In this document: in pieces, positions 2,655 through 54,520 of the stretch
Position numbering within the stretch: the stretch's first letter is position 1
Layout: each line of letters begins with the position of its first letter
NCBI GenBank assembly: GCA_021816845.1
Contig: JAKAWT010000001.1
Coordinates: 70,087-134,086, forward strand
Origin: a bacterium
GTDB taxonomy: Bacteria; Patescibacteriota; Dojkabacteria; JAKAPS01; JAJZLI01
Length of the DNA: 64,000 nucleotides
Direction of reading: 5' to 3'
The notes under the pieces: model-generated
The model's input: the letters and a program-made list of their open reading frames with translations, nothing else
What the model was told of the DNA's origin: nothing
Databases searched by the model: none
Position numbers and translations under genes: made by a program

Positions 2655-2990
2655 TTAACTATTCAATTTTTGTTGAGGATCACTAAATTCTACAACTTTG
2701 AATATACCTTGTCGTATAATTTCTCCTATTAGGTAGAGTGATCTTTGTAATTTTGAAATATTTGTCCCTCTAAAATCTTTCCCTTGCTCTAGATTATACA
2801 ATATAAAGTAACCTTCATTGTGCTTTTTTACATCAAAGGCCAAATATCTTTTACCCCAAACATCTTGATTCTTTATATCTAAAGAATTATCTTTAATAAT
2901 ATTTTCTATTTTATTTTGGATGTTTAATCTGACATTCTCGGGAAGAGAAGGCTTAAGTGCTAACATCAACTCATATTTTCTTGTACTCAT
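2655..2990 (-). CDS. rpsF: 30S ribosomal protein S6. Start placed at the internal Met, not the ORF-track Met.
   Basis: MSTRKYELMLALKPSLPENV... matches the S6 N-terminus (M-x-x-YE-x-x-x-x-x-P). The 16 codons upstream in the ORF track are probably not translated. Confidence 0.8.
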   Translation of the reverse strand: MSTRKYELMLALKPSLPENVRLNIQNKIENIIKDNSLDIKNQDVWGKRYLAFDVKKHNEGYFILYNLEQGKDFRGTNISKLQRSLYLIGEIIRQGIFKVVEFSDPQQKLNS

Positions 2991-3108
2991 AAAAAAATAA
3001 CATATTAACTTAGACAAATAGTACCATACAACCACTGTTTTATCAAGGATCTAAATGCTTATGTCTATACAAAGATATCTAATACTAGTAAGACTTAATA
3101 TTTAAATA

Positions 3109-3408
3109 TTAAAATAAGGAAAATAAAACTTTACCTACAATATCTTGTTTCCTTATATATCCAAACTTTCTACTATCTAAGCTGTCATTTAAATTATCTC
3201 CTAGAATATAGTACTCGTTATTTTTAATATCTGATACCCTTTTTAGTATGGGAATATTATTAAATTTATTTGTTTTTACAACAATAATATCTCCTACTTT
3301 TGGATTCGTAAACAAATATTTTATAAAACTCACAAAAACTATGCTACCTTCGGAAATTGTAGGGTACATACTGTCACCTTTAACTTTGAGAAGTTTTATA
3401 AATACCAT
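3109..3408 (-). CDS. sodX: short S26-family signal-peptidase-like protease. Probable NiSOD maturation protease (SodX-like).
   Basis: VKGDSMYPTI...GDIIVV...LKRV...YYILGDNLNDSLDSRKFG carries the S24/S26 catalytic Ser (GDSM) and the SPase I box (GDN..S.DSR..G). It sits immediately downstream of sodN on the same strand, as in Streptomyces sodN-sodX. Function is inferred from context. Confidence 0.5.
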   Translation of the reverse strand: MVFIKLLKVKGDSMYPTISEGSIVFVSFIKYLFTNPKVGDIIVVKTNKFNNIPILKRVSDIKNNEYYILGDNLNDSLDSRKFGYIRKQDIVGKVLFSLF

Positions 3409-3431
3409 CTATAAATATTGTACTTTAGAAT

Positions 3432-3923
3432 CTAACCTTTAGCCCTAGCTTCTTTTACTTTATTAAAAGATTCTGCAACTTTTGACACTGATTCAACCAA
3501 ATTATTAGCATTTTCTGTACTTACAGTTTGTTTTGCTAAGGATGCAAGCTTGCAAGTATTCCATATTAAATCATGCAAATCTGGAATTGTAGCAAGATCA
3601 GATGCTTTAAAATAATCTGTCCACAATATTAGGACCTCTCTTTTAACCCTTTCTGCATGTTCCTCCTTTACAAGGATCCTTCTTGTAATTGAGTTTTGAA
3701 TTTCAATACTACCACTATTACTTTTATATTCATCCGTATCCTTTATAGTATTTATCTGTTCTACCATTGTGGCTACAGTTTTTGCAGCCATCACTGCATC
3801 AAAAGGATCATAGATCCCACAAGGTACGTCACAATGAGCATACACAAAATCAATACTAATGTTTCTTTTTATAAAATTAATGATACCGAATTTAGATAAT
3901 TTGTTTCTTGATACTTTATACAT
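3432..3923 (-). CDS. sodN: nickel-containing superoxide dismutase (NiSOD) precursor
   Basis: The N-terminal pro-peptide is followed by HCDVPCGIYDP, the Ni-hook motif (HCDLPCGVYDP in Streptomyces). Size of ~130 aa after processing fits a NiSOD 4-helix bundle. Confidence 0.85.
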   Translation of the reverse strand: MYKVSRNKLSKFGIINFIKRNISIDFVYAHCDVPCGIYDPFDAVMAAKTVATMVEQINTIKDTDEYKSNSGSIEIQNSITRRILVKEEHAERVKREVLILWTDYFKASDLATIPDLHDLIWNTCKLASLAKQTVSTENANNLVESVSKVAESFNKVKEARAKG

Positions 3924-3970
3924 AATTATAAATATAATATACTAGTTTAATATTATAAAATGAATACTAT

Positions 3971-4534
3971 ATGAATATCAACACCATATTGTTTTATAGG
4001 ATTAACTCAATTATAGCTATTCACTATTTTAATATATTTTTCATCCTCTTTTCTGAGTATTTCATATATATCTTTATAATTTCAACAATATTAATTTTTT
4101 TTATCAAGAATAGAGTAAGTACAAAGCAGAGTAATCAAAATATTATTATATTATCATTATTATCTGCAATATTTGGAGTTATAATAAATGTAATCACTAA
4201 AATTTTTTATTTTGACAATACACCTTATAATATTTTGCCAGGCATAAATAAAATAATACAACTGCCATATTTTAGTATATTATTCTCAAATTCACTTGTT
4301 ATATTAACAGCAATTACAGGCATTATTTATCTATATAACAAAAAGCTTAGTTATTTTTATATTGGAGGGTTAATACTTATTGGGTTTTCAAAAATAGCTA
4401 TAGGACAATATTTTCCAATATACGTAATACAGAGTTATATAATAGGTATTATATCTGCTATTATAATCTATAAATGCCAACATCTATTCTATTTAATATT
4501 TAAGAATATTCAAGCTCTGATCAGTAATAAATAA
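3971..4534 (+). CDS. hypothetical polytopic membrane protein
   Basis: 187-aa highly hydrophobic ORF with several predicted TM segments and no recognisable motif. Its 3' end overlaps the RNase P RNA gene on the opposite strand, so the exact stop or the reality of the C-terminus is uncertain. Confidence 0.4.
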   Translation: MNINTILFYRINSIIAIHYFNIFFILFSEYFIYIFIISTILIFFIKNRVSTKQSNQNIIILSLLSAIFGVIINVITKIFYFDNTPYNILPGINKIIQLPYFSILFSNSLVILTAITGIIYLYNKKLSYFYIGGLILIGFSKIAIGQYFPIYVIQSYIIGIISAIIIYKCQHLFYLIFKNIQALISNK

Positions 4535-4890
4535 GCCGGATTCTGTTTATGTGTTCATCTATCTTGAGACAATATTTCTACTATCTTCCTTGCGTCTTAT
4601 TTTGACTTGCTGGAGATGGAGGTTACAATGCCTTGATGAATCACTTCTCAAGCGGTAGTCTCTTACACTGCCATTTCACCCTTATCCAAAAGATCTAAAT
4701 TCTAGGATCAAGATCCTAAGATCAAAATATTTAGGACGGTATATTTTCTGTTGCCCTTATTCTAAAGATCTCTCCTTACTATATGTTAAATAGCATCTAC
4801 TTCATTGCCTTCCGACAATGCCAGTCCAGACTTTCCTCACACATAGGTTCTTACACTTATGTGCGCGAACACTTATATTACTGATCAGAT
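4516..4890 (-). ncRNA. rnpB: RNase P RNA (bacterial type A-like)
   Basis: The minus strand contains GGAAAGUCUGGAC (P4 5' strand, plus 4823-4835), AAGGGUGAAAUGGCAGUGUAAGAGACUACCGC (the conserved P10/11-P12 region, plus 4648-4679) and ACAGAAUCCGGCUUA (P4 3' strand, plus 4533-4547). Terminal P1 pairing is CUGAUCAGUAAU/AUUACUGAUCAG (plus 4877-4889 with 4516-4528). Local GC is higher than the surrounding DNA. The ends are approximate. Confidence 0.8.
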
Positions 4891-4916
4891 AGAGATATTA
4901 TACCATATAATAGATC

Positions 4917-5132
4917 CTACTTTATAGAAAATGCAGTTCTTAAAGATTGATCAAATGGTAGTGTTCCTATATATATAGATATAATAAATAATATTACGAT
5001 GACAACAACTATAAATATTAGGCTCCATATCAATCTACGTGCAATTGGTTGATAATCATTATCTATAACATTACCTTTATCACGTGCTTTCAAAACTTCA
5101 ATCTCATATTTTAAACTTTTTTTTGATGCCAT
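4917..5132 (-). CDS. small hypothetical membrane protein (single TM)
   Basis: 71-aa ORF with a charged N-terminus and one strong TM helix (LIWSLIFIVVVIVILFIISIYIG). No homology recognised. Confidence 0.35.
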   Translation of the reverse strand: MASKKSLKYEIEVLKARDKGNVIDNDYQPIARRLIWSLIFIVVVIVILFIISIYIGTLPFDQSLRTAFSIK

Positions 5133-16555: not shown

Positions 16556-17092
16556 ATGGAAAAAACAAATGTCCTAGCCTTTGCAGGATCCCTAAGAAGG
16601 AATTCATATAATAAGATGTTACTTAATAATATGGTCTCTTTGGGGGAAAATATTATAAATATCAATATATTTGATATATCAGAGATACCATTTTTTAATC
16701 AAGATATTGAAAATGAACCTCCAGAAGTAATTAAGGAGTTAAGAAAACAAGTTAATGATTCTGAAGGGGTAATTATTGTCACTCCAGAATATAATTTTTC
16801 TTTCTCTGCAATTACTAAAAACGTAATCGACTGGCTATCAAGAGTAGAAAAACCGTTAGATAATAAACCTGTGTGTATATGTGGTGCATCAGGAGGTTAT
16901 TTTGGTACTGCACGTGCGCAGCTACAATTACGTCCGGTCCTTGCAGCGGTCAATGCTAGAGTTATGTCAAAACCAGATTTGTTTATACCCAATGCTCAAA
17001 ACATATTTTCGGATGGAGGAGAAATTCTAGATACTACTATACAGAATAATATTAAAGATTTTTTACAAAAATTCAATAATTTTATAAAATAG
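16556..17092 (+). CDS. NAD(P)H-dependent FMN reductase family protein (flavodoxin-like fold)
   Basis: NVLAFAGSLRRNSYNK, VIIVTPEYNFSFSAITKNVIDWLSR and GASGGYFGTARAQLQLRPVL match the NADPH-dependent FMN reductase (SsuE/ArsH/YieF) family. Confidence 0.7.
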   Translation: MEKTNVLAFAGSLRRNSYNKMLLNNMVSLGENIININIFDISEIPFFNQDIENEPPEVIKELRKQVNDSEGVIIVTPEYNFSFSAITKNVIDWLSRVEKPLDNKPVCICGASGGYFGTARAQLQLRPVLAAVNARVMSKPDLFIPNAQNIFSDGGEILDTTIQNNIKDFLQKFNNFIK

Positions 17093-35950: not shown

Positions 35951-36772
35951 ATGGATGTTAAAATTTTTTATAAATCATTACTTCTTCTGTTTTTATCATC
36001 ATTATTCCTATTTGTCCCTATTAGAGATATAAATGCAAATAGCATTGGTAACATAGCACAAAACTATATTGCTTTAACTCACGGAATGCAAACTGGAGAA
36101 ATAGTATCATTAATATCAAAAAATACTTTTGCAGGAGTATATCCATCAGCAAAACCCAATGACCCTAATGTTTTTGGGGTAATTGATTTTAATAGTACTG
36201 TAATTACAGGAATAACAGCTCCTAATAGAATCCCTATTATTCAATCAGGAACAATTAATGTATACGTATCAAACTTAAATGGAAATATCCAAAAAGGTGA
36301 TCTTATAACTTCATCAATAGTTCCTGGAGTAGGAGAAAAAAATACAAATACAGGAATGGTAATAGGTGTAGCTAATGCATCTTTTTTGAAGAGTAATATA
36401 ATAAAAACAGAAACTATAAATGTGAAAGGTAAAAATGTCAAAATAAGTATAGAAAAAATTCCAGTACTATTAAGTTTTCAAGAATATTATGATAACAATG
36501 CCCTACAAAGCCAATTTAATGGATTTCTTCCAAATTTTATAAAAAAAGGAGTTTCTTTTGTAAATATCATCATAGCTATAATTATAGTATTGATGGGTTT
36601 TATAATTTTTCTAATTGGAACTTTATCATCATTAAGACAGCTTATGGGTGCTATGATAAGAAATCCTACATCAAAAAGATTAGCAATAAATAGTGCGATA
36701 ATAGTCATTTTTATATTACTTTTAATTTTCATCCTTACAATAGCTATGGGTTATGCATTCTTAGTAATATAA
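35951..36772 (+). CDS. family C protein: secreted domain plus C-terminal 2-TM hairpin (RNP loop). Paralog of 29738..30490. First gene of the surface-protein cluster.
   Basis: Signal peptide with cleavage-like site (ANS), conserved GNIQKGD/IPGVGEK blocks, and C-terminal LRQLMGAMIRNPTSKRLAINSAIIVIFILLLIFILTIAMGYAFLVI. Confidence 0.55.
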   Translation: MDVKIFYKSLLLLFLSSLFLFVPIRDINANSIGNIAQNYIALTHGMQTGEIVSLISKNTFAGVYPSAKPNDPNVFGVIDFNSTVITGITAPNRIPIIQSGTINVYVSNLNGNIQKGDLITSSIVPGVGEKNTNTGMVIGVANASFLKSNIIKTETINVKGKNVKISIEKIPVLLSFQEYYDNNALQSQFNGFLPNFIKKGVSFVNIIIAIIIVLMGFIIFLIGTLSSLRQLMGAMIRNPTSKRLAINSAIIVIFILLLIFILTIAMGYAFLVI

Positions 36773-36831
36773 ATTAAAGTCTTATTGACAAATACTGGCA
36801 ATTATTATAAATTGATATAAATTAATATAAG

Positions 36832-37950
36832 ATGAATAAAAATATGAAAATAATGAAAAGAATGGCGTTAAGGATAACAAATATATTCTTAATATTATCT
36901 TTATCGTTATATGCTTTTTCAGCATTACCTTTCTTAGCTAATACAGATGCAGCATCTTTGACTCCATTAACTGATGTTATGTCTAATTCTGGAGGATATG
37001 GGACAGGTGGCCCTCAAACAGTTTCAACTGCGAATGTATCTCACTCTTTTTCGTATACAACCCCAACTGCATATACAACCTCAAGTACTATTGATATATA
37101 TATACAAACAGCATCATCAATAGGTGGAGGTGAAGCAGCTACTGCTTTCTCTTCTGTAGCTGCAACTACCTCTACTGTAACAGTAAATGGTACTGCTGCA
37201 ACTGCAGTGACTCTAACAAATGGGGTATCAGATTCTAATTTTGCTGGATACACATTTACTGAAGTTGCAATTACTGTACCTGTAGCTATATCATCTGGTG
37301 CAACTGTTACAATAAATGGTATTACTGCAACTAACCCTTCTACTGCTTCATCATCAACAAATCAGTATGTTATTGATATCCAAGACTCAAATGGTAATGA
37401 CGGATATATGGCTGTACCTATAGTCACTAATGCATCAGTTGCCGTAACAGGAAGAGTTACCCCTTCTATAAATTTTAGCCTATCATCAAATACAACATCA
37501 TTTGGGGTAATGCAACTTGGAGTAGTTAACACATCGTCACCTGCAACAACATTGACCGTTTCAACAAATGCTCAATCTGGTGCAGTTGTATATGTATATG
37601 ATCATGGTAATGGAACATCTGGAGGTTTATATAACTCTATAGCAAATCATCTTATCCCATCATCTAGTACAACTTTAGCTGGAGGAACTGAAGGATATGG
37701 TATTAATGCTGCAACTACTTCAACCAGTGGTACTGGAGGAGTTATAGGTACAATGTCTGTATCATCACCATATAATGGGACAGGAGATGCAGTTGGAGCT
37801 TTAGCTTTATCATCTACAACTCTAGCCACTGGTACAGCTCCCATGTACGGAGTTACTATACAAGTAAACTATCTTGCAGCTATCAGCGTCACTACCCCTG
37901 CTGGTATATACAATGATGATGTAACCTACGTAGCTACTGGAAAATTCTAA
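36832..37950 (+). CDS. family A secreted S/T/A-rich protein. Conserved N-terminus SLTPLTDVMSN and C-terminal module ...VNYLAAISVTTPAGIYNDDVTYVATGKF.
   Basis: Signal peptide (…LANTDA^AS). The C-terminal ~130 aa align with 39931..40890 and 45562..47439 (TGRVTPSINFSLSSNTTSFGV..., TEGYGINA..., SPYNGTGDAVGAL). Confidence 0.6.
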   Translation: MNKNMKIMKRMALRITNIFLILSLSLYAFSALPFLANTDAASLTPLTDVMSNSGGYGTGGPQTVSTANVSHSFSYTTPTAYTTSSTIDIYIQTASSIGGGEAATAFSSVAATTSTVTVNGTAATAVTLTNGVSDSNFAGYTFTEVAITVPVAISSGATVTINGITATNPSTASSSTNQYVIDIQDSNGNDGYMAVPIVTNASVAVTGRVTPSINFSLSSNTTSFGVMQLGVVNTSSPATTLTVSTNAQSGAVVYVYDHGNGTSGGLYNSIANHLIPSSSTTLAGGTEGYGINAATTSTSGTGGVIGTMSVSSPYNGTGDAVGALALSSTTLATGTAPMYGVTIQVNYLAAISVTTPAGIYNDDVTYVATGKF

Positions 37951-37975
37951 AATATAGATAGTATTTGGGTAATTA

Positions 37976-38977
37976 ATGAAAAATTTTATAGTCTCTAAAA
38001 AAACATATATTGTTTTTGTAACAGTTTTAATAATATTATTACTCTCCCCTATTAATTCTTTTGCACAGCAACCAAACAGCACATCTACATTTTCTGGTGC
38101 TTTAAACTCCTCAACAAAATCTCATGAAGGAGCTACAACAAGTGGTATTACAGTATCACCTCTTCTAACGACAATATTTCTGAATAAAACAGAGAACTCT
38201 ACCCAATATATAACTTTATTTAATAACAACTCAACCCCAATAACTGTCAGTTTAGCATTCTCCAATTTTATATCAAAAAACCAATTTGGAGCACCTGAAT
38301 TTTTAGGTTTTTCAAAAGGACAAATACAGGATACAAATTTATTAATACAATCTCCTACTTCTATAACGCTTCCACCTTTAAAAACAATAAAAGTACCGTT
38401 AACAATTCTCACAAATAATAATACTCAACCAGGAGAATACTTCATTGGAGCTTTTGCTGTCATTAAAGGAAATACTATTAGATCAGCACCGGTATCTATA
38501 GCTACAAATTCTGCTATAGGATCATTATTTTTAATTAGAATTAATGGAAAAGTTTCTGAGACAGGATATATACAATCTTTTTCTGCAACAAAAAGTTTGT
38601 TTACTGGTGGGGCTGTAAACTTTCAGGCAATATTTAAAGACACAGGGAACGTAGACCTTATACCTCAAGGAGTAATTGATATATATAATATGTTTGGGAA
38701 GAGAGTAGCAAGTATTACATTTAACCAAAATAGAGCTATAGTCCTACCTGTTGGTGTGAATAGTAGAATATATAATTCTTCATGGAATCCTGAATCTTTG
38801 GCTTTTGGAGAATTCACAGCAAAATTATTTTTAACATATGGAACAACTACAGTAACAACCATATATCAATCTACAAATTTTTGGATAATACCTTTATGGC
38901 TTGAAATACTTGCAATAATAATAGTTATACTTATAGTTACATGGATAGTAAGGTTACGCTTAAAATTAAGGACATAA
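37976..38977 (+). CDS. family B protein: secreted ~270-aa domain, C-terminal TM anchor and basic tail (…WIVRLRLKLRT)
   Basis: Signal peptide (…NSFA^QQ). Shares LIRINGKVSETGYIQSFSATK with ITINGKIISSGYIQNFGATK in 44642..45568, and a similar architecture with 42390..43304. Confidence 0.6.
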   Translation: MKNFIVSKKTYIVFVTVLIILLLSPINSFAQQPNSTSTFSGALNSSTKSHEGATTSGITVSPLLTTIFLNKTENSTQYITLFNNNSTPITVSLAFSNFISKNQFGAPEFLGFSKGQIQDTNLLIQSPTSITLPPLKTIKVPLTILTNNNTQPGEYFIGAFAVIKGNTIRSAPVSIATNSAIGSLFLIRINGKVSETGYIQSFSATKSLFTGGAVNFQAIFKDTGNVDLIPQGVIDIYNMFGKRVASITFNQNRAIVLPVGVNSRIYNSSWNPESLAFGEFTAKLFLTYGTTTVTTIYQSTNFWIIPLWLEILAIIIVILIVTWIVRLRLKLRT

Positions 38978-39882
38978 TACCTAGACACCTAGTGTCTGAA
39001 CACATTATCTTAACAAATAAAAGTTTAAGTAACTTAATTAGTTATATTGTATCTTTAGTATTTTTATTCATATCTTTGTTTATCTTGATAATAAACATTT
39101 CTTCCTCAGTGTATGCCCAGAATTTTTCACAACCATTTACCCAAAGTGCAGGTAAACAAACTGTAAATATTCACGCTTATGCCCCACTACTAGATAACTG
39201 GGCATATATAATATCCAGTCAGGGGAAAATATATATTAGACAAGAAAATACGATATATATGAATGAAAAGATTCCTGTATATGTACAAACATTTGGAACA
39301 AATAAAACACCACTCCGTGATCAAACAATTTTTCTGTCATCACCTGATACGAAATATGGTCTACATATAATCGAGCCTAAAATCCCAACAAATGTTAAAG
39401 GATTAACAATCGGCTATATAACATCAACATACAATCAACCTATTATGTACACAATCATAGCAACTGACACGACATATGCAGAAGCCCCAGTAGTATTTAA
39501 AAACATGCTTCAAGTACAATACTATCCATCAAGAAACTATAAGCCTCCATTCTTTACAAATATTCTTAATTCCTTAGGAAATTTATTCTCATCAACAACA
39601 AATATCTTAGATATATTTAGTATTGTCATTGCAATTATCACATTTTTAATAGTGGAAAGAAAATTGCTAATATCAAAAATATCTATAACAATACAAAATC
39701 AATATAGAGTTTTATTTGGTATGCTAAGGATCTTAGTGATACCATATATTATATCAATTTTTGCGTTATACAACCAACACTCATTAATTAATTATATATC
39801 TATTGCACTCCTTGTACTGGTTAGTGTACATTTTATATTAGTATATATAAAAAATCTGAAGGAAGCAGTCTCTAAATCTTAG
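38941..39882 (+). CDS. membrane protein: N-terminal anchor, ~170-aa extracytoplasmic domain and a C-terminal 3-TM domain. Start uncertain.
   Basis: Overlaps the previous gene by 37 nt, so the real start may be further downstream. Hydrophobic C-terminal segments: IFSIVIAIITFLIV, VLFGMLRILVIPYIISIFALY, ISIALLVLVSVHFILVYI. Confidence 0.45.
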   Translation: MDSKVTLKIKDIIPRHLVSEHIILTNKSLSNLISYIVSLVFLFISLFILIINISSSVYAQNFSQPFTQSAGKQTVNIHAYAPLLDNWAYIISSQGKIYIRQENTIYMNEKIPVYVQTFGTNKTPLRDQTIFLSSPDTKYGLHIIEPKIPTNVKGLTIGYITSTYNQPIMYTIIATDTTYAEAPVVFKNMLQVQYYPSRNYKPPFFTNILNSLGNLFSSTTNILDIFSIVIAIITFLIVERKLLISKISITIQNQYRVLFGMLRILVIPYIISIFALYNQHSLINYISIALLVLVSVHFILVYIKNLKEAVSKS

Positions 39883-39930
39883 GATACAGATTTTAGAGAT
39901 TGTATTGCTTGATAATATAAAGATATAAAT

Positions 39931-40890
39931 ATGAACACTTTAACTAAGGATAACCTTAACAAAATTAAAAAAAGTGTGTTAGTTTTGGTACTTATATTAT
40001 TAGTATTGTCTACAGGTATTTTATATTCTGTAAATGCAGCAACACTGACTCCAATATCAGATACTATGTCAAACCAAACAGTATCAGTGTCATCAGCAAA
40101 TAATTTCTCATTTGATGCAGTATCTGGTATTCCAGCTTCAGGAACAGTGACCATAACATTTCCATCAGGGTTTACTTCTGTAGCAGTGACTTCAGCAACA
40201 TCATCTATGTCAGGTGCAACATTTTCAGTTACTGGTAATGTTGTAACAGTAACAAACGGTACTACTGCTGTAACAGCCGGAACTACAGTAACGATATCTA
40301 ATATAACAGCCATAAATCCTAGTACAGCATCATCTACATCTACTCAATATATTATTACAATATCTGATTCAGGAGGTGACAACGCATCAATTGCTGTTGC
40401 CATAGTAACAAGCTCTCAAGTAACTATATCTGCAACAGTAAATCCTACAATAACTTTTTCAATCTCGTCCAATAGTATAAGTTTTGGTGTGTTAACTGCA
40501 ACCACAGTTTCATCTCAAACTAATACATTAACACTTTCAACTAATGCTTCTAAAGGGGCTAATATCACAGTCTATGACCTTAATGCTGGACTATTACAAA
40601 ATGTCTCATCTGGACACTTAATTGCATCTTCTACAGCAACCCTATCTGCAGGAACAGAAGGGTATGGTATTAATGGATCTGGGGCGGGAGGATTAACAGT
40701 TGTATCTCCGTATAATGGCACAGGTGATGCGGTTGGAGCATTGGTAAAGACAGCGCAAAATTTAGCATCCATATCTGTACCAGTATCAGGAGGGACAGTA
40801 ACTGTAAATTATTTGGCTGCAATATCTGCCGTAACCCCAGCAGGAACATATGCTGATACAATAACATATATAGCTACAGGGAATTTTTAG
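39931..40890 (+). CDS. family A secreted protein (N-terminus ATLTPISDTMSNQ, C-terminus ...VNYLAAISAVTPAGTYADTITYIATGNF)
   Basis: Signal peptide (…SVNA^AT). Shares a ~270-nt near-identical DNA segment with 45562..47439. The C-terminal module is conserved with 36832..37950. Confidence 0.6.
   Translation: MNTLTKDNLNKIKKSVLVLVLILLVLSTGILYSVNAATLTPISDTMSNQTVSVSSANNFSFDAVSGIPASGTVTITFPSGFTSVAVTSATSSMSGATFSVTGNVVTVTNGTTAVTAGTTVTISNITAINPSTASSTSTQYIITISDSGGDNASIAVAIVTSSQVTISATVNPTITFSISSNSISFGVLTATTVSSQTNTLTLSTNASKGANITVYDLNAGLLQNVSSGHLIASSTATLSAGTEGYGINGSGAGGLTVVSPYNGTGDAVGALVKTAQNLASISVPVSGGTVTVNYLAAISAVTPAGTYADTITYIATGNF
40069..40330. repeat. ~270-bp near-identical direct repeat, copy 1 (inside 39931..40890)
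   Basis: Sequence starting ATCAGATACTATGTCAAACCAAACAGTATCAG and running to ...ACTACAGTAACGATATCTAATATAACAGC is ~95% identical to 45675..45945. Confidence 0.8.
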
Positions 40891-40964
40891 AAATTTACTT
40901 TATAAGAATCATCTAGATATATTTAATATTAAACTCTATTCTGCTATTATTTATATATTAAAGT

Positions 40965-42386
40965 ATGAAAAAATATATATTCCTCTTTATATTTTGTTTT
41001 ATAATATTATTTGTACCAAAGATACTGGTGCCTGAAACCGTTCTTGCCCAAAATTATGTATCTACAGACTATATTTTATCAGATCCAGTTTTTGGAGAAT
41101 CAGGTCCTTATGTATCATCTCCATCATTTAAAGAGAGAAGTGCTCTTGGACAAACAGCTACAGGTATATCACAAAGTACCAATTTTATTTTAAAATCAGG
41201 ATTTGAATATTATTCTGGACAATCTGTTCCATCAATTACAATGTCACTAAATACCAATTTGATTAACTTCAATACTGTAGCTCCAAATACAATAGTCAAA
41301 TCTCCAACAAATTCAATCATTACAATATCATCCAATGCAGAATCTGGATATAACCTTTATATAGAGCAAAATAATAATCTTACAAACCAACAAGGGGATA
41401 CTATACCTCAAGTTTCAAATGGAGCAACTACAACTACTGCAGCACCATGGACATCGGCATCATATTATGGTTTAGGATATAACTGTTCTTCAGCGAATAC
41501 GTATGAACAAGCAGTTCTTGTAAATTCTCCAATTGGATTCTGGTCACTAGGAGAAACAACAGGTACTACAGCATACGATTTATCTGGAAACGGGAACAAT
41601 GGAACATATACAGGAGGATATACTCAAGGAGCCCCTGGCCCTATATCTAATTCTAATTTGGGAAATTCTACACTATTTAATGGATCTAATTCATATGTAT
41701 CACTCCCAAATGTAATACAACCATATACAATAATTACTATATCCTTATGGTTTAAAACAACATCTGATGGAATAATATTAGGATATCAAAATGCTACGGT
41801 AGGATCGGCTCAAAATGATTATGTACCAATTATATACATAGGAACTGATGGTAAATTAAGAGCTGAATTATGGAATGGTTTAGTTGATCCTATAACTACA
41901 ACTAATACTGTCAATGATGGTAGATGGCATAATATTACTCTGGTTGCAAACTCCACTACTCAAAGTTTATATTTTGACAATTCTCTTGTAGGTACATTAT
42001 CTGGAACAATAACTAATTTAACTATGACTTATAATCAGTTAGGTACTGGGTACGGATCAAGTTGGCCATCAACAAATGGATCATGGTTTTACTTTAAAGG
42101 AGGTATCTCTAACGTATCTATATATACATCTGCCTTATCATCTTCTCAAATACAAACCCTTTTTAATGATGGTATAAATTCTACTCAAGCGTTTTGTTCT
42201 CCCGATTTTATAAATACAAATTATTATAGACAACTATCATCTACAACAAATACTGAATTTGCATCATATTCCTCTATAGCAACAAACCAAACAATAACTG
42301 TTGGTTATGCAGTTAATGTATCAAACATTCAAGCATCAGGAATATATACAAACAATATTATATATACATTAACAGGAAATTACTAA
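40965..42386 (+). CDS. secreted protein with a LamG/concanavalin-A-like lectin domain and a family-A-like C-terminal end (…IIYTLTGNY)
   Basis: YDLSGNGNNGTYTGG...GAPGPI...LFNGSNSYVSLPN...ITISLWFKT...DGRWHNITLV is the LamG_3/ConA-like jelly-roll pattern. The C-terminal ...ASGIYTNNIIYTLTGNY is like the family A ends. Confidence 0.6.
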   Translation: MKKYIFLFIFCFIILFVPKILVPETVLAQNYVSTDYILSDPVFGESGPYVSSPSFKERSALGQTATGISQSTNFILKSGFEYYSGQSVPSITMSLNTNLINFNTVAPNTIVKSPTNSIITISSNAESGYNLYIEQNNNLTNQQGDTIPQVSNGATTTTAAPWTSASYYGLGYNCSSANTYEQAVLVNSPIGFWSLGETTGTTAYDLSGNGNNGTYTGGYTQGAPGPISNSNLGNSTLFNGSNSYVSLPNVIQPYTIITISLWFKTTSDGIILGYQNATVGSAQNDYVPIIYIGTDGKLRAELWNGLVDPITTTNTVNDGRWHNITLVANSTTQSLYFDNSLVGTLSGTITNLTMTYNQLGTGYGSSWPSTNGSWFYFKGGISNVSIYTSALSSSQIQTLFNDGINSTQAFCSPDFINTNYYRQLSSTTNTEFASYSSIATNQTITVGYAVNVSNIQASGIYTNNIIYTLTGNY

Positions 42387-42389
42387 ATT

Positions 42390-43304
42390 ATGCAATTAAT
42401 CAAAAAATTTATAATTTCAATTATAGTATTATCGTTTCCTCTTGTATCCTCAATAAATACCTTCGCAATCTCGCCACAGGAAAGTATAAGAGTTACCCCT
42501 GCTTATATATCTCTAACTGAAAAATCCGGATCAAGTGCGTATGAGAATCTATCAATATTCAATAATTCCAACACTACTTTAAATCTTAATATATATACAC
42601 GAGGTATACAGTATGATCATAAAAAATTGATACTTATAAATTCTATATTACAATCTAATATTGAAAATTGGATTTCTATAAAAACTACAAAAATAAGTGT
42701 ACAACCACATAAAACACAGAATGTGCCAGTATATATTAATGTACCAAAAAATGAGAAATATGGTTCATACAATGGTGGAATAGTTATTTCAAATATACCA
42801 CAATCAAAAGTAGGAAATTCTACAATATTCGGAAGAATAATTGTGAACGTTTTTGTGAATATAAGAGGAAAAAATAAAGGATACTCAAATATAAATATAT
42901 CAAATTTAAATCACCCTTCTTTAGTATTTCAAAATTCAGCAATATTAAATTTAGAAACTTATAATCCTGGCCCGTATAATAATGCATATAAAACTAATAT
43001 TTACACATCATCAATATTCGGTTTATCAAATACTAATATTGGTAGAATAGGATTAGAAAATATACTTGTAGGGCAAAAAAGATACAATACTGTAGATTTA
43101 AAAAATTTAAAAATAGGTATAAATTATGTACAGATACAGCTTTCAAATATAGGTAATAATACTAAATCAAATGTGAATTTTACTATTTTCTATATACCAT
43201 TCTATACGATATATATTCTAATACTTATATTAATAGTAATATTTATGTACCATCTATATAGATTAAGAAAAATACAAAGAAAATTAAAAAACCGTAAGCA
43301 ATAA
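42390..43304 (+). CDS. family B protein: secreted domain, C-terminal TM anchor and basic tail (…YRLRKIQRKLKNRKQ)
   Basis: Signal peptide (…NTFA^IS) and the same architecture as 37976..38977 and 44642..45568. Confidence 0.55.
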   Translation: MQLIKKFIISIIVLSFPLVSSINTFAISPQESIRVTPAYISLTEKSGSSAYENLSIFNNSNTTLNLNIYTRGIQYDHKKLILINSILQSNIENWISIKTTKISVQPHKTQNVPVYINVPKNEKYGSYNGGIVISNIPQSKVGNSTIFGRIIVNVFVNIRGKNKGYSNINISNLNHPSLVFQNSAILNLETYNPGPYNNAYKTNIYTSSIFGLSNTNIGRIGLENILVGQKRYNTVDLKNLKIGINYVQIQLSNIGNNTKSNVNFTIFYIPFYTIYILILILIVIFMYHLYRLRKIQRKLKNRKQ

Positions 43305-43494
43305 TCATTATTAAATTCTGTAATAGTTGATTGATTAAAATTTCATGGTAAAAAATACTAAATATACCATTTTTTTTAAATCTCAACTTCCACTATATAT
43401 GTTTTAGCTATTTTGAATTTTTTCATATAACTATTATTACATTAAACAACCTAGTTACTAAATACTAATATATCTATGTATTTAGATTTTATCG

Positions 43495-44496
43495 CTATTT
43501 AAAAATGTATATACCATCTTTAATATCATATGACTTACCACATTTTTGACATACTAATTTTTTAGAATATAAATTCTTAAGATCTCCATGACATATTGGG
43601 CAGCACAAACTATCTTTAAAAATATCTTTAATATCTTTTGCTTTATCTAAAAAATTATTTTTTAAATTATCATCTTTTAAAAGATATAAAAATATGCTTG
43701 GACCAAAATATGTTTTAGAAAATATAATTCCAAATTTATTATCCAAAGATATTAATATGTTCGTATTAAATAGTTTTTTGAAATATTTTTGTCTGAAATT
43801 TGATGCTGAAAAAACTTTCTTAACTATTAAGTGATTTTTTACTAGAGTTTTAATAATATATGAAGGTGAAAAATTTAAGAATATTTGATCATTTAAAAAT
43901 CCTTGAGAATCATTTTTATGCGGAATGGAATAAATATCTTGTTTTCTAAAATCTTTATCTTTAAAATGTCTCATTCTTGATAACATATGATCCTTATTTG
44001 CAAATTCCAAAATAAAACTATTTGATATCACTCTTGATATTTCACTTATTGCAAGATCAGGATTTTCTATATGATGTAAAACCCTAACTAACATGCCTGA
44101 GGAGATTGATCCATCTTTAAATGGCATGTTATATATGTCCCCACAAACTTTAAAAACATTTGAATCTAGATTATTTTTACCTTCTGCTTTTTTTAGATTA
44201 GAAAATGAGTAATCAAAAAGTATTGAATATGAATATTTATTCTGGTATAGATCAGTGAGCCTACCATACCCTCCACCTATATCTATAAATGACCTCGAGT
44301 TGTTGGGTTTAGACTTAAATAGATTATTATCCTTTAATAATTTAGATAGTATATTCCTTTCAGATTGGTTTTCATATTCCCTATCTTTCCAATATTTCCT
44401 ATAATCATATTCTAAATTTGAATCATAATCTTGGACTCGTATTTTTGTATTCAAACTTTTTTTATTAATACTTCTAGTATTGGTCATAGGGTTCAT
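43495..44496 (-). CDS. class I SAM-dependent methyltransferase fused to a C-terminal Trm112-like zinc-ribbon domain
   Basis: Motif I (FIDIGGGYGRLTDL) and motif post-I/II (VCGDIYNMPFKDGSISSGMLVRVLHH). C-terminal CCPICHGDLK...CQKCGKSYDIKDGIYIF is a Trm112/DUF343-like zinc ribbon. Confidence 0.65.
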   Translation of the reverse strand: MNPMTNTRSINKKSLNTKIRVQDYDSNLEYDYRKYWKDREYENQSERNILSKLLKDNNLFKSKPNNSRSFIDIGGGYGRLTDLYQNKYSYSILFDYSFSNLKKAEGKNNLDSNVFKVCGDIYNMPFKDGSISSGMLVRVLHHIENPDLAISEISRVISNSFILEFANKDHMLSRMRHFKDKDFRKQDIYSIPHKNDSQGFLNDQIFLNFSPSYIIKTLVKNHLIVKKVFSASNFRQKYFKKLFNTNILISLDNKFGIIFSKTYFGPSIFLYLLKDDNLKNNFLDKAKDIKDIFKDSLCCPICHGDLKNLYSKKLVCQKCGKSYDIKDGIYIFK

Positions 44497-44641
44497 TTTA
44501 CATTAAAAGTATAATATTTTGTAGTCCCTATAAATATTATACTTTTATTATGTTAAACTATATAAAATAGACTTGGATCCAGATCCAATGGATCAGAACT
44601 ATTGGATCAAGATCCTCTAATCTAATCAAGTCTAGACTATT

Positions 44642-45568
44642 ATGAAAAATTTTATAAAATTAACTTTATTATTACTGCCAATACTAACAATATTTTTCGC
44701 TAGTAATATATACGCTAAAATTATTCCTGACAAAGGAATCACTCTATCACCTGTAATATCTAAGATAACATTAAATAAGGGAGAAACTTATAATGGTAAA
44801 CTATATATAACATATAATAATAACTCAAAAGTTAATGCAAATATTTTAGTTTATGCATTTAGACAATCAGGTGACACTGCACATCCGAAATTCTCAAACA
44901 AAATAAATAAACTTTCTGAATCAATTCATTGGATTAAGATTCAAAAAAATGTAACTTTGTATCCACATAAATCCATTGCAATTAACTATACAATAAATGT
45001 GGCAAATAATGCATCTCCAGGTGGACATTTCTTATCAATAATAGTATCAATAACTAAATCAGGGAATGAAAAGATTGTCGAATCTGTAGGATCTCTACTT
45101 ATTATTACTATAAATGGAAAAATTATATCTTCTGGATATATACAAAATTTTGGAGCTACAAAAAAAATATTTTTAGAAAATCCAATAAATTTATATCTAG
45201 ACTTTGCAAATACTGGGAATATACAACTATCACCATTTGGGTATATTACAATTTCAAATATATTTGGAAATACAATAAAAGTAATAGAAATAAATAAAAA
45301 TCAATCTTTAGATTTACCAAAAAGTACGAGATTGTATACTACTAATTTTAATTTGAAAAATTTTATTAATCAGTTTGGGATATACCAGGCAACTTTGAAT
45401 CTTACATATGGATACCCAGGGCATTTCGTAAATACTCAAAGTTCTAGTACATTCTATTATTTTAATTATTTATACCTAATTATATTACTTCTTATCATAA
45501 TTGTTATCATACTTTATATAATTAAAAGAAAACATAATAAAAAATTATTGTTTTTTAAAAAATGGTAA
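44642..45568 (+). CDS. family B protein: secreted domain, C-terminal TM anchor and basic tail (…IKRKHNKKLLFFKKW)
   Basis: Signal peptide (…NIYA^KI). Conserved block with 37976..38977. The stop overlaps the start region of the next family-A gene. Confidence 0.6.
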   Translation: MKNFIKLTLLLLPILTIFFASNIYAKIIPDKGITLSPVISKITLNKGETYNGKLYITYNNNSKVNANILVYAFRQSGDTAHPKFSNKINKLSESIHWIKIQKNVTLYPHKSIAINYTINVANNASPGGHFLSIIVSITKSGNEKIVESVGSLLIITINGKIISSGYIQNFGATKKIFLENPINLYLDFANTGNIQLSPFGYITISNIFGNTIKVIEINKNQSLDLPKSTRLYTTNFNLKNFINQFGIYQATLNLTYGYPGHFVNTQSSSTFYYFNYLYLIILLLIIIVIILYIIKRKHNKKLLFFKKW

Positions 45569-47439
45569 AAAAATATTCAATAAAATTTGTTACAGTATTA
45601 AGTATATTCGGATTATTTTTCTTATCAATATATCCAATATTTACTAGTGTACAAGCCGCTTTAATAACACCTTTATCAGATACTATGTCAAACCAAACAG
45701 TATCAGGATCATCAGCAAATAATTTCTCTTTTGATGCAGTATCTGGTATTCCAGCTTCAGGAACAGTGACCATAACATTTCCATCAGGGTTTACTTCTGT
45801 ATCAGTGACTTCAGCAACATCATCTATGTCAGGTGCAACATTTTCAGTTACTGGTAATGTTATAACAGTGACAAATGGTACCACTGCTATAACAGCTGGA
45901 ACTACAGTAACCATATCTAATATAACAGCTACAAACCCATCTATTGCCTCATCATCGACAACACAATATATAATAACAATATCTACATCAGGTGGTGATC
46001 AGGCATCAGTTGGAGTAGTAATAGTAGCATCGTCAACCTATGGATCTGGACCTTCAGGAGATATATATCAACAAGCTATAACCATAAATAGTACAAATAC
46101 AAGTACACTAACTAACTATCAGGTGGAAGTAACATTAAATACTCAAACACTCATATCTGCAGGTCAAATGCAGGCAGATTGTGCAGATATTAGGTTTACA
46201 GATTCTTCTGGGAATCTTCTTCCTTATTGGATTGAATCAGGCTGTGATACAACCTCAACTCAAATATGGATTAAAATTAATACTATAGCAGCATCAACAA
46301 ATACAACAATTTTTTTATATTATGGATCATTAAACGCAGCACCGGAGAGTAATGGACATACTACATTCAATTACTTTGACCAAGGAAGTCAAATCAATAA
46401 TTGGATAACTTCTGGATCATCTGGGCAGAATACAGCTACAGGAGATCCAGCTCCTTCATATTATGCAAACTCTTCAAACGGTGATTATATGTATAAAAAC
46501 ATAAACCTTACATCAAATGAATTACTAACCTTTGATGCTAATACAAATGCATTAGGAGATTTTTATTTTCTTACAAACTCCTCTGGGGCTGGGCAGATGT
46601 ATAGGACAGGTATAAGTTCTGGATGGTTCGGTTTTGCCACAACTAATTCTTGGACATCTTGGACTGCACCTACAGGTACATCTCCAATAAGTGCAAATAC
46701 TTGGAATAAATACCAAATTGCGATTACTTCTCCAACCTCTGCAACATTGTATTATAAACTAACATCAGGAGATTCTCCATTAATAAATGGTACATTACTT
46801 GGAACATATACAATTTCTAATAATGGAGGATATATAGGACTTGTAGGGGACGCAGCAGGATCAAGTAATATTACCTACTGGGATAATATTATTGTTAGAC
46901 AGTACTCTTCCCCAGAACCAACAACAACAGTATCTACAACAGTCACTAATCTGACAAATAACCAGCTACAACTTGAAGTAGGTGTTAATCCTTTTATTAC
47001 ATTCCAGGTTAGTTCTAATTCACTAAACATAGGAACTCTATCACCAACTTTGGTATCATCAGCTACAAATTCATTAACATTATCATCTAATGCTTCCAAT
47101 GGAAGCAATGTATCTGTAATGGATGCTAATGCTGGATTATATAATTCTGCTGATAGTCATAAAATAATATCTACAACCACAACTCTTCAAGCTGGAGTAG
47201 AAGGATATGGAATAAATGCATCTACTACATATTCAGGTTTAAATATAGAATACCCATATAATGGTACTGGAGATAGTATTGGTGGGCTATCCCAAACTGC
47301 ATCATCAACATTATGTTCTTCTACAACAACTGTAAATGCAGCAAATATTGTTATAAATTATCTTGCATCGATTTCAAATATAACCCCATCAGGTCCATAT
47401 CAAGATCAAGTCATTTTCATAGCTACAGGCAATTTCTAA
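45562..47439 (+). CDS. family A secreted protein with an inserted DUF2341/LamG-like module (625 aa)
   Basis: N-terminus ALITPLSDTMSNQ... and C-terminus ...VINYLASISNITPSGPYQDQVIFIATGNF. The central segment ...CADIRFTDSSGNLLPYWIESG...TQIWIKIN...TIFLYYG... matches the DUF2341 hallmark. More jelly-roll-like sequence follows. Confidence 0.6.
   Translation: MVKKYSIKFVTVLSIFGLFFLSIYPIFTSVQAALITPLSDTMSNQTVSGSSANNFSFDAVSGIPASGTVTITFPSGFTSVSVTSATSSMSGATFSVTGNVITVTNGTTAITAGTTVTISNITATNPSIASSSTTQYIITISTSGGDQASVGVVIVASSTYGSGPSGDIYQQAITINSTNTSTLTNYQVEVTLNTQTLISAGQMQADCADIRFTDSSGNLLPYWIESGCDTTSTQIWIKINTIAASTNTTIFLYYGSLNAAPESNGHTTFNYFDQGSQINNWITSGSSGQNTATGDPAPSYYANSSNGDYMYKNINLTSNELLTFDANTNALGDFYFLTNSSGAGQMYRTGISSGWFGFATTNSWTSWTAPTGTSPISANTWNKYQIAITSPTSATLYYKLTSGDSPLINGTLLGTYTISNNGGYIGLVGDAAGSSNITYWDNIIVRQYSSPEPTTTVSTTVTNLTNNQLQLEVGVNPFITFQVSSNSLNIGTLSPTLVSSATNSLTLSSNASNGSNVSVMDANAGLYNSADSHKIISTTTTLQAGVEGYGINASTTYSGLNIEYPYNGTGDSIGGLSQTASSTLCSSTTTVNAANIVINYLASISNITPSGPYQDQVIFIATGNF
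45675..45945. repeat. ~270-bp near-identical direct repeat, copy 2 (inside 45562..47439)
   Basis: ~95% identical at the DNA level to 40069..40330. Also explains the look-alike antisense ORFs 39879..40313 and 45555..45914. Confidence 0.8.
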
Positions 47440-53688: not shown

Positions 53689-54324
53689 CTATCCTTTAAC
53701 AACACAAGAGAGAGGTTGTGTTAACTCTCCCCAAAGACCATACCCAGGAGGAGCTGAAGCATTAATTGAATTTCCATTAACATTTATGATAGGTGATTCT
53801 CCACCAGTAAGGTAAAATACTCCCCCTCCTTCTTTACAGAACCCAACAGCGTACCCTACTGGGAAACCTCCTAAATTACTTGACTGTCCAGAATTAACAT
53901 AGTCATCAACATAGAAGTATTGTGTTTGTGATGCAGATGTGAAGTTAGAGGAACCAGGATATCCATCAAATCCAGACCCTCCCGCAGAAGCTACACCAGT
54001 TAAAGCAGTGGATTGTACAACCCAATCATATGCTGGAGAATTACTAGGTTGATAAATAGCAAAACAGACATGTCCATTATTTGAGGTTCCCCCTATACAA
54101 GAAGAATTTTGATTCTCAAATAATACATCTGAAGGATAGTAGTGGTGACTATTAAAATAATTCTGCATATCTTTATTTATAGCCGATATAGCTGTGGATC
54201 TTACCTCATCTCTAGCTGTTACCTGAGCAGATCCTAGCCCAATAATGGCAATAGCAACCAAAATGCCTATAATAGCCATCACTATAAGAAGTTCAACCAA
54301 AGTAAATCCATCAGATCTAGGCAT
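53689..54324 (-). CDS. type IV pilin/pseudopilin (prepilin with class III signal peptide). Start placed at the internal Met.
   Basis: MPRSDG^FTLVELLIVMAIIGILVAIAI carries the G/FTLxE prepilin peptidase site and the hydrophobic alpha1 helix. The body is Gly/Ser-rich with a C-terminal Cys pair (C...C). Confidence 0.7.
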   Translation of the reverse strand: MPRSDGFTLVELLIVMAIIGILVAIAIIGLGSAQVTARDEVRSTAISAINKDMQNYFNSHHYYPSDVLFENQNSSCIGGTSNNGHVCFAIYQPSNSPAYDWVVQSTALTGVASAGGSGFDGYPGSSNFTSASQTQYFYVDDYVNSGQSSNLGGFPVGYAVGFCKEGGGVFYLTGGESPIINVNGNSINASAPPGYGLWGELTQPLSCVVKG

Positions 54325-54520
54325 TTTATTAAAAATTCTATATATCTTCATACAAAAATAATACCCTAAATAGAAATTTTTTTAAATGCATAGAGAATAT
54401 AGATCTAATAAATGGTAATTCAACAGATCAAGATCCTATGGATTCAGATCCAAGACTATAGAAGACTATAGAATTATTTTTCAATATTACATATAATACT
54501 CATGGTTTATATTAATCTTT

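Follow-up and report, generated by a model that had tools for sequence, protein, structure and literature searches.

A sodN-sodX gene pair encoding a nickel superoxide dismutase precursor and its putative maturation protease in a Patescibacteria (CPR) bacterium

We analysed a 64,000-nucleotide stretch of DNA (hereafter the window) from a Patescibacteria (CPR) bacterium, and we consider it highly probable that two adjacent genes on its minus strand form a two-gene sodN-sodX unit, in which sodN encodes the precursor of a nickel superoxide dismutase (NiSOD) and sodX an S26 protease that matures this precursor ahead of His30. The present analysis established that both products belong to their respective families, that the nickel ligands, the catalytic dyad and the motif at the cleavage site are conserved, and that the genes show synteny and purifying selection. 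The pair is a known and ordinary system: standard annotation pipelines would name both genes, and close relatives already bear these names. The elements on which the assignment is based are the following:

3432..3923, minus strand: sodN, 163-aa NiSOD precursor, ATG start, stop codon 3432..3434
3837..3923, minus strand: pro-peptide, SodN residues 1-29, MYKVSRNKLSKFGIINFIKRNISIDFVYA, as read from the sequence
3804..3836, minus strand: Ni-hook HCDVPCGIYDP, SodN His30-Pro40, with predicted cleavage between VYA and H (between positions 3837 and 3836)
3109..3408, minus strand: sodX, 99-aa S26 Ser/Lys peptidase, ATG start, Ser13 codon 3370..3372, Lys56 codon 3241..3243

The scheme that we propose borrows cleavage, nickel binding, hexamer formation, activity and co-transcription from the Streptomyces and Prochlorococcus systems. 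Translation of sodN would yield a cytoplasmic precursor of 163 aa, in which the 29-aa pro-peptide would block formation of the nickel site, because this site can form only with a free alpha-amine on His. The co-encoded SodX, soluble and 99 aa long, with Ser13 as predicted nucleophile and Lys56 as predicted general base, would recognise the signal-peptidase-like Val(-3)-Tyr-Ala(-1) and cut ahead of His30. The freed N-terminus HCDVPCGIY would then fold into the Ni-hook, where nickel would be bound by the amine and imidazole (axial) of His1, the amide and thiolate of Cys2 and the thiolate of Cys6. The 134-aa subunit (about 15.0 kDa), a predicted four-helix bundle, would assemble, presumably into a hexamer, and dismutate superoxide by Ni(II)/Ni(III) cycling.

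The NiSOD precursor, its leader and its hook

Judged by its profile matches, the minus-strand frame 3432..3923 encodes a precursor of the NiSOD family. The NiSOD-family HMM match that an earlier note on this DNA had put forward as a check was obtained with two models, PF09055 (128.5 bits, cut-off 25, E = 2.9e-37) and the NCBI equivalog TIGR02753 (145 bits, curated cut-off 90, E = 1.8e-42). A phmmer search of the PDB returned Streptomyces NiSOD chains only (1t6u/1q0d, E about 1e-15), the alignment running to the C-terminus from His30, the counterpart of His1 of the mature Streptomyces enzyme. With E-values of 1.5e-20 to 1.8e-42 for the family matches of the sodN and sodX products, chance is effectively excluded.

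An AlphaFold (AF2) model of SodN, computed with 20 homologues as input, reached a mean pLDDT of 85, with 119 residues at a pLDDT of at least 90, and displays a four-helix bundle. Foldseek matched this model to all NiSOD chains of the PDB (16 chains, E 3e-7 to 7e-6, target-normalised TM 0.81-0.91); the next match had E = 0.1 and nothing else was significant. Compared with Streptomyces NiSOD, SodN has helices 1 and 2 separated by an insertion of 13 residues (approximately residues 57-69, window 3717..3755, minus strand), a region in which the model places a short additional helix at residues 64-68. The pLDDT dropped below 50 at residues 1-10 and 27-34, in the leader and the hook, and this low confidence fits the N-terminal disorder of NiSOD in apo enzyme structures.

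The Ni-hook HCDVPCGIYDP that the earlier note had recognised is indeed present, at SodN residues 30-40. Its first part (HCDVPCGIY, residues 30-38) follows the motif His-Cys-x-x-Pro-Cys-Gly-x-Tyr, with His1, Cys2 and Cys6 at the ligand positions, and H1, C2, D3, P5, C6 and Y9 were invariant in 82/82 aligned NiSOD sequences, 1T6U included. Upstream of the hook, the residue at -1 of the predicted cleavage site was Ala in 81/81 precursors, and position -3 was occupied by Ala, Val, Ile or Leu in the aligned precursors (Val in SodN), a pattern that reads as the small-residue rule of S26 peptidases.

The leader described in the same note is also there, with a length of 29 aa instead of about 28. It is basic (pI 10.3) and its maximum Kyte-Doolittle 19-residue window is 0.74; devoid of a hydrophobic or membrane-spanning core, it is not a signal peptide or export signal. 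Leaders of patescibacterial relatives measure 17-29 aa, which puts the present one at the long end, and conservation among relatives extends to at least -17, the surplus being an N-terminal stretch that is poorly conserved and also present in P0004. The view that the pro-peptide is atypically long holds at most weakly against these relatives, but the whole precursor, at 163 aa, falls inside the 145-166 aa published for cyanobacterial NiSOD precursors (PMC8346466). Besides the ATG, the sole other canonical start codon of sodN is a GTG at codon 27, and the ATG at 3923 was therefore retained as the start.

SodX and its relation to signal peptidases

By family, SodX is best described as a soluble, minimal S26 peptidase of the NiSOD maturation type. 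It scored 73.5 bits (cut-off 63.25, E = 1.5e-20) against TIGR02754, the model of the nickel-type superoxide dismutase maturation protease, in a match that is colinear and runs end to end, with SodX residues 7-95 on positions 1-89 of the 90 of the model. It also matched PF10502 (81.1 bits, E = 1.2e-22), in agreement with the earlier reading of 3109..3408 as a 99-aa S26-type peptidase, and the S26 boxes on which that reading relied are all found in the frame, namely GDSM (Ser13), LKRV (Lys56) and GDN..S.DSR..G. Ser13 and Lys56 align with the catalytic Ser/Lys of S. aureus SpsB; among the SodX-like neighbours of sodN, S13, P16 and K56 were invariant (61/61), and GDN, S76, D78, S79 and G83 were conserved in 52-59 of the 61. 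The AF2 model (pLDDT 84) adopts the core fold of S26 peptidases, and Foldseek related it to SpsB/SipA (query-normalised TM 0.74-0.80). A 98-aa relative, 80% identical to SodX, bears the NCBI name 'nickel-type superoxide dismutase maturation protease'. The Ser/Lys dyad, whose absence would have spoken against the maturation pair, is thus in place, the cut-offs of TIGR02753 and TIGR02754 are both exceeded by the products of adjacent genes, and the NiSOD profile match and the dyad together support the sodN-sodX reading. We also considered SodX as a LexA/UmuD-type S24 self-cleaving protein and rejected this candidate, as PF00717 gave 41.5 bits, below the S26 and TIGR02754 matches, and GDN..S.DSR is an S26 signature.

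The alternative that survives best, although we judge it very improbable, is that the 99-aa protein serves the cell as its general type I signal peptidase (LepB/SipS-like), with an incidental position beside sodN, and is not a dedicated NiSOD protease. Against TIGR02227, the general model of signal peptidases, SodX likewise passes the cut-off (73.2 bits versus 47), and with a score nearly equal to that for TIGR02754, so that the HMM score alone cannot separate the two kinds of enzyme, and small residues at -3 and -1 are the general rule for S26 enzymes. Type I signal peptidases (S26A: LepB, SpsB, SipS) moreover share with SodX the catalytic core fold, the Ser/Lys dyad, the GDN-S-DSR box and the small-residue preference at -1/-3. 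The TIGR02227 match, however, is split into two stretches, in contrast to the colinear TIGR02754 match over 89/90 positions, and SodX is about half the size of these enzymes, predicted to be cytoplasmic and to serve a single dedicated substrate. The membrane anchor expected of a type I signal peptidase was not found in SodX: a TAG stop abuts the ATG upstream and only 10 residues precede GDSM, which makes an anchor impossible, and hydropathy windows along the protein peak at 1.06. A longer sodX, extended upstream so as to hold such an anchor, is ruled out by the same stop. The 160-172 aa homologues P0129-P0132 have a hydrophobic segment at the N-terminus and an insertion between the KR and GDN boxes; SodX has neither, and the missing insertion is also a difference from the type I enzymes. 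The adjacency to sodN, finally, recurs in 60/80 loci from Patescibacteria, DPANN, Chloroflexota and others, as would suit a dedicated maturation protease.

The small size of SodX, which the earlier note had considered atypical, turned out to be usual: TIGR02754 has only 90 positions, the frames of the 41 same-strand SodX neighbours, taken from stop to stop, mostly comprise 95-134 codons (two outliers have 223 and 249), and the named relative is one residue shorter. Some database SodX calls (83-116 aa; L088 5494..5745, P0124, P0127) begin at a Met located right after the catalytic Ser. The L088 frame is open upstream of the called start, where it encodes ...KILFKILKVKGDSM, and the last 20 codons of this upstream part hold no ATG, GTG or TTG; the real start is hence located upstream or non-canonical, and the short entries are probably truncated calls.

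We give even less credit to the idea that maturation or use of the SodN-like protein follows another route, for instance via an internal start or with another metal, and that SodX is not needed: the GTG at codon 27 could in principle start M-Y-A-H, and ten sodN-carrying cyanobacteria without sodX have been reported (PMC8346466), but such a start would still leave three residues ahead of His and call for an endoprotease, the conservation of the leader extends well upstream of this codon, and the hook motif is specific to the nickel enzyme family. Maturation of SodN by the adjacent SodX remains the reading that we favour.

Gene order, selection and distribution

The surroundings of the pair comprise the following features:

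2655..3035, minus strand: rpsF, mechanical ORF with GTG start, 126 aa
3248..3442 and 3696..3899, plus strand: ORFs overlapping the sodN-sodX region
3409..3431, minus strand: sodN-sodX spacer, 23 nt, no terminator
3952..3981, minus strand: candidate sigma-70-like promoter for sodN-sodX, TTGATA-18-TATAAT, 11 of 12, the best-scoring site of the region
3971..4534, plus strand: 187-aa membrane-protein ORF, divergent from sodN, very hydrophobic, with a sub-threshold PAP2 match (24.7 bits versus 27.2)
4517..4884, minus strand: RNase P RNA, bacterial class A (Rfam RF00010, 179 bits, full length)

By analogy with the characterised systems, sodN and sodX would be co-transcribed. Promoter- and terminator-type sites were no more frequent than in shuffled sequence, and the site at 3952..3981 is accordingly given as a lead only; no Shine-Dalgarno sequence is evident upstream of sodN or sodX. 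Downstream of sodX lie rpsF, ssb and rpsR. Both the public record and the relative have an rpsF that starts at the ATG at 2990 and encodes 111 aa (MSTRKYEL...). The two plus-strand ORFs that overlap the pair look like low-complexity AT-rich shadow ORFs. The 3' end of ORF 3971..4534, on the opposite strand, overlaps the RNase P RNA by 18 nt; this ORF has a counterpart at the same place in the relative L087 and none beside sodN in another, L088. We rejected the product of this ORF as a nickel permease, a role suggested by analogy with cyanobacterial sodT, on account of this absence in L088, of a PAP2 match that stays below threshold and of the lack of any nickel-permease match.

In L087, with 75-80% protein identity, the order PAP2-like / sodN / sodX / rpsF / ssb / rpsR is the same, down to the 23-nt spacer, and the sodN-sodX arrangement is also the same in L088. 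Comparison with the 75-80% identical relative gave dN/dS values of 0.24 for sodN and 0.16 for sodX (dS 0.6-0.7), alongside about 0.10 for the flanking rpsF and ssb; both genes are under purifying selection. The GC content of sodN-sodX equals that of its neighbours (26-29%), the window as a whole having 29.5%. Shared gene order and spacer, dN/dS and flank-like GC indicate that the pair is native, conserved and under selection, and a recent horizontal island was rejected in view of the flank-like composition and the conserved synteny.

These data also bear on the proposal that sodN-sodX has lost its function and persists as a relic, or was recently acquired by horizontal transfer and goes unused in this organism. 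The NiSOD phylogeny is patchy and includes horizontal transfer (PMC8346466), and no nickel transporter was seen nearby (about 82 kb), two points that such a proposal could claim. Against it stand two intact frames that retain every catalytic and ligand residue, the dN/dS values of both genes, a gene order identical to that of a relative of only 75-80% protein identity and a GC content indistinguishable from that of the flanks, so that we see hardly any chance of its being correct. A native and conserved sodN-sodX pair accounts for the locus.

The survey of species-representative genomes yielded 592 related stretches, of which 80 loci (L007-L086) were retained for comparison; as the search patterns were AHCD[IV]PCG and LILW[TS]DYF, this sample is biased towards the present NiSOD subfamily. 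The retained loci belong to Patescibacteria classes, DPANN archaea, Chloroflexota/SAR202, MAGs labelled 'Gammaproteobacteria' and others. An S26-like ORF occurs within 500 bp of sodN in 60 of the 80, spread over several phyla, either downstream on the same strand (41 loci) or divergent upstream (19 loci, mostly Chloroflexota), and Pfam adds three further loci with an S26 neighbour. Pairs of this kind are common in Patescibacteria.

SodN itself has 3,806 homologues; among the nearest that bear a name, many belong to Patescibacteria MAGs ('Patescibacteria group bacterium'), and homologues across Patescibacteria carry the NCBI name 'superoxide dismutase, Ni'. NiSOD is widespread in Patescibacteria, DPANN archaea and Chloroflexota, and its presence in a reduced genome is therefore not exceptional. 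The earlier note, which had found a NiSOD noteworthy in a reduced, AT-rich genome, overstated the case in view of these homologues and of the many CPR and DPANN lineages among the loci kept. A report on groundwater Patescibacteria MAGs counts sodN among the SOD genes, and the papers retrieved on NiSOD in CPR mention it only in passing.

Characterised NiSOD systems, nickel supply and wider neighbourhood

Streptomyces NiSOD (SodN; PDB 1T6U, 1Q0D) belongs to the same family and has the same fold; sequence identity is about 30% along the entire mature chain. Its ligand set (His1, Cys2, Cys6), together with Asp3, Pro5 and Tyr9, is identical to that of the SodN described here, Ala likewise occupies -1 of its cleavage site, and the gene for the cognate S26 peptidase is adjacent in both cases (SCO5254/SCO5255 in Streptomyces). 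The leader differs in length, with 29 aa here versus 14 aa in Streptomyces. The orientation differs as well: sodN and sodX are co-directional here, whereas in S. coelicolor the 5' region of sodN lies, according to PMC3919588, within the sodN-sodX intergenic region, which implies a divergent pair. No regulation of the Nur/sodF type known from Streptomyces is evident at the present locus.

The sodN-sodX pairs of marine cyanobacteria (Prochlorococcus/Synechococcus) likewise combine a small genome with a compact NiSOD and a maturation protease. PMC3919588 (citing Eitinger 2004) reports an experimental demonstration that Prochlorococcus NiSOD depends on its cognate peptidase, and PMC3919588 and PMC8346466 present this requirement as established for both Prochlorococcus and Streptomyces. 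The only cyanobacterial MAG of our sample (L085) has HCDGPCGVY with Thr17/Gln47, versus HCD[IV]PCGIY with Ala17/His47 here, and the present SodN belongs to a different NiSOD subfamily from the cyanobacterial one. A further difference is that no candidate nickel permease adjoins the pair here.

The main departure from the Streptomyces enzyme concerns the second coordination sphere, which in the latter includes a His1-Glu17-Arg47 hydrogen-bond triad (PMC5722923). SodN lacks this triad, with Ala46 and His89 at the positions of Glu17 and Arg47, and it also has Glu (E96) in place of His54. In our subfamily-biased sample, position 17 is Ala in 75/82 sequences and position 47 is His in 80/82, and the subfamily has Glu or Asp instead of His at position 54. 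The triad is a feature of the characterised enzyme that is absent from the family models, and its loss consequently leaves NiSOD membership intact; Ala/His in place of the Streptomyces Glu17/Arg47 amounts to a mild peculiarity at the subfamily level. As a tentative idea that we regard as possible but rather unlikely, the HCD[IV]PCGIY / Ala17 / His47 / Glu-or-Asp54 subfamily might tune the axial His1 through a second-sphere network other than the Glu17-Arg47 triad of the Streptomyces enzyme, the only NiSOD characterised structurally, and meet its nickel needs with no dedicated importer encoded nearby. If true, the smallest known SOD would have a very widespread, uncharacterised variant that differs in mechanism and suits ultra-small genomes.

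As to nickel supply, about 82 kb annotated with Pfam (the window plus 10 kb on either side) revealed no nickel importer or chaperone, and housekeeping genes only. The flanks beyond the window were taken from contig DAIBVT010000002.1 (MAG GCA_027425355.1), part of which is identical to the window. In the 80 loci sodN has 150 immediate neighbours, and the 25 Pfam families commonest among them likewise include no nickel-transport family (NiCoT, HupE/UreJ, CbiM).

The commonest of these neighbours are pyridine-nucleotide disulphide oxidoreductases (7/150). In two relatives (L088, region 3978..4974; L007, 2397..2972), sodN is directly preceded by a gene for an NADPH-dependent FMN reductase (PF03358), which in L088 has a divergent gene for an HxlR-type regulator beside it. 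In the window, an FMN_red gene is located at 16556..17092 on the plus strand, about 13 kb from sodN. Taken together, the genes around sodN may form a loose oxidative-stress neighbourhood.

The sodN-sodX pair shows that this CPR bacterium invests in defence against oxygen radicals, its choice being the most economical SOD, an enzyme free of any iron requirement. The same window, which carries the FMN reductase gene, also holds, in its regions 30.5-35.8 kb and 47.4-53.7 kb, an F-type ATP synthase operon, a Suf Fe-S assembly cluster accompanied by an Rrf2 regulator, and genes for a Rieske protein, a ferredoxin and NifU-like proteins. The ATP synthase, Suf, Rieske, ferredoxin and NifU-like genes fit an oxygen-exposed lifestyle of this bacterium.

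Between these two regions, positions 35951..47439 on the plus strand hold about eight same-strand ORFs of 273-625 aa, with Laminin_G_3 and DUF2341 as their only Pfam matches. Their products may be located at the cell surface or associated with pili. At 53689..54351, the window encodes a pilin-like N_methyl protein.
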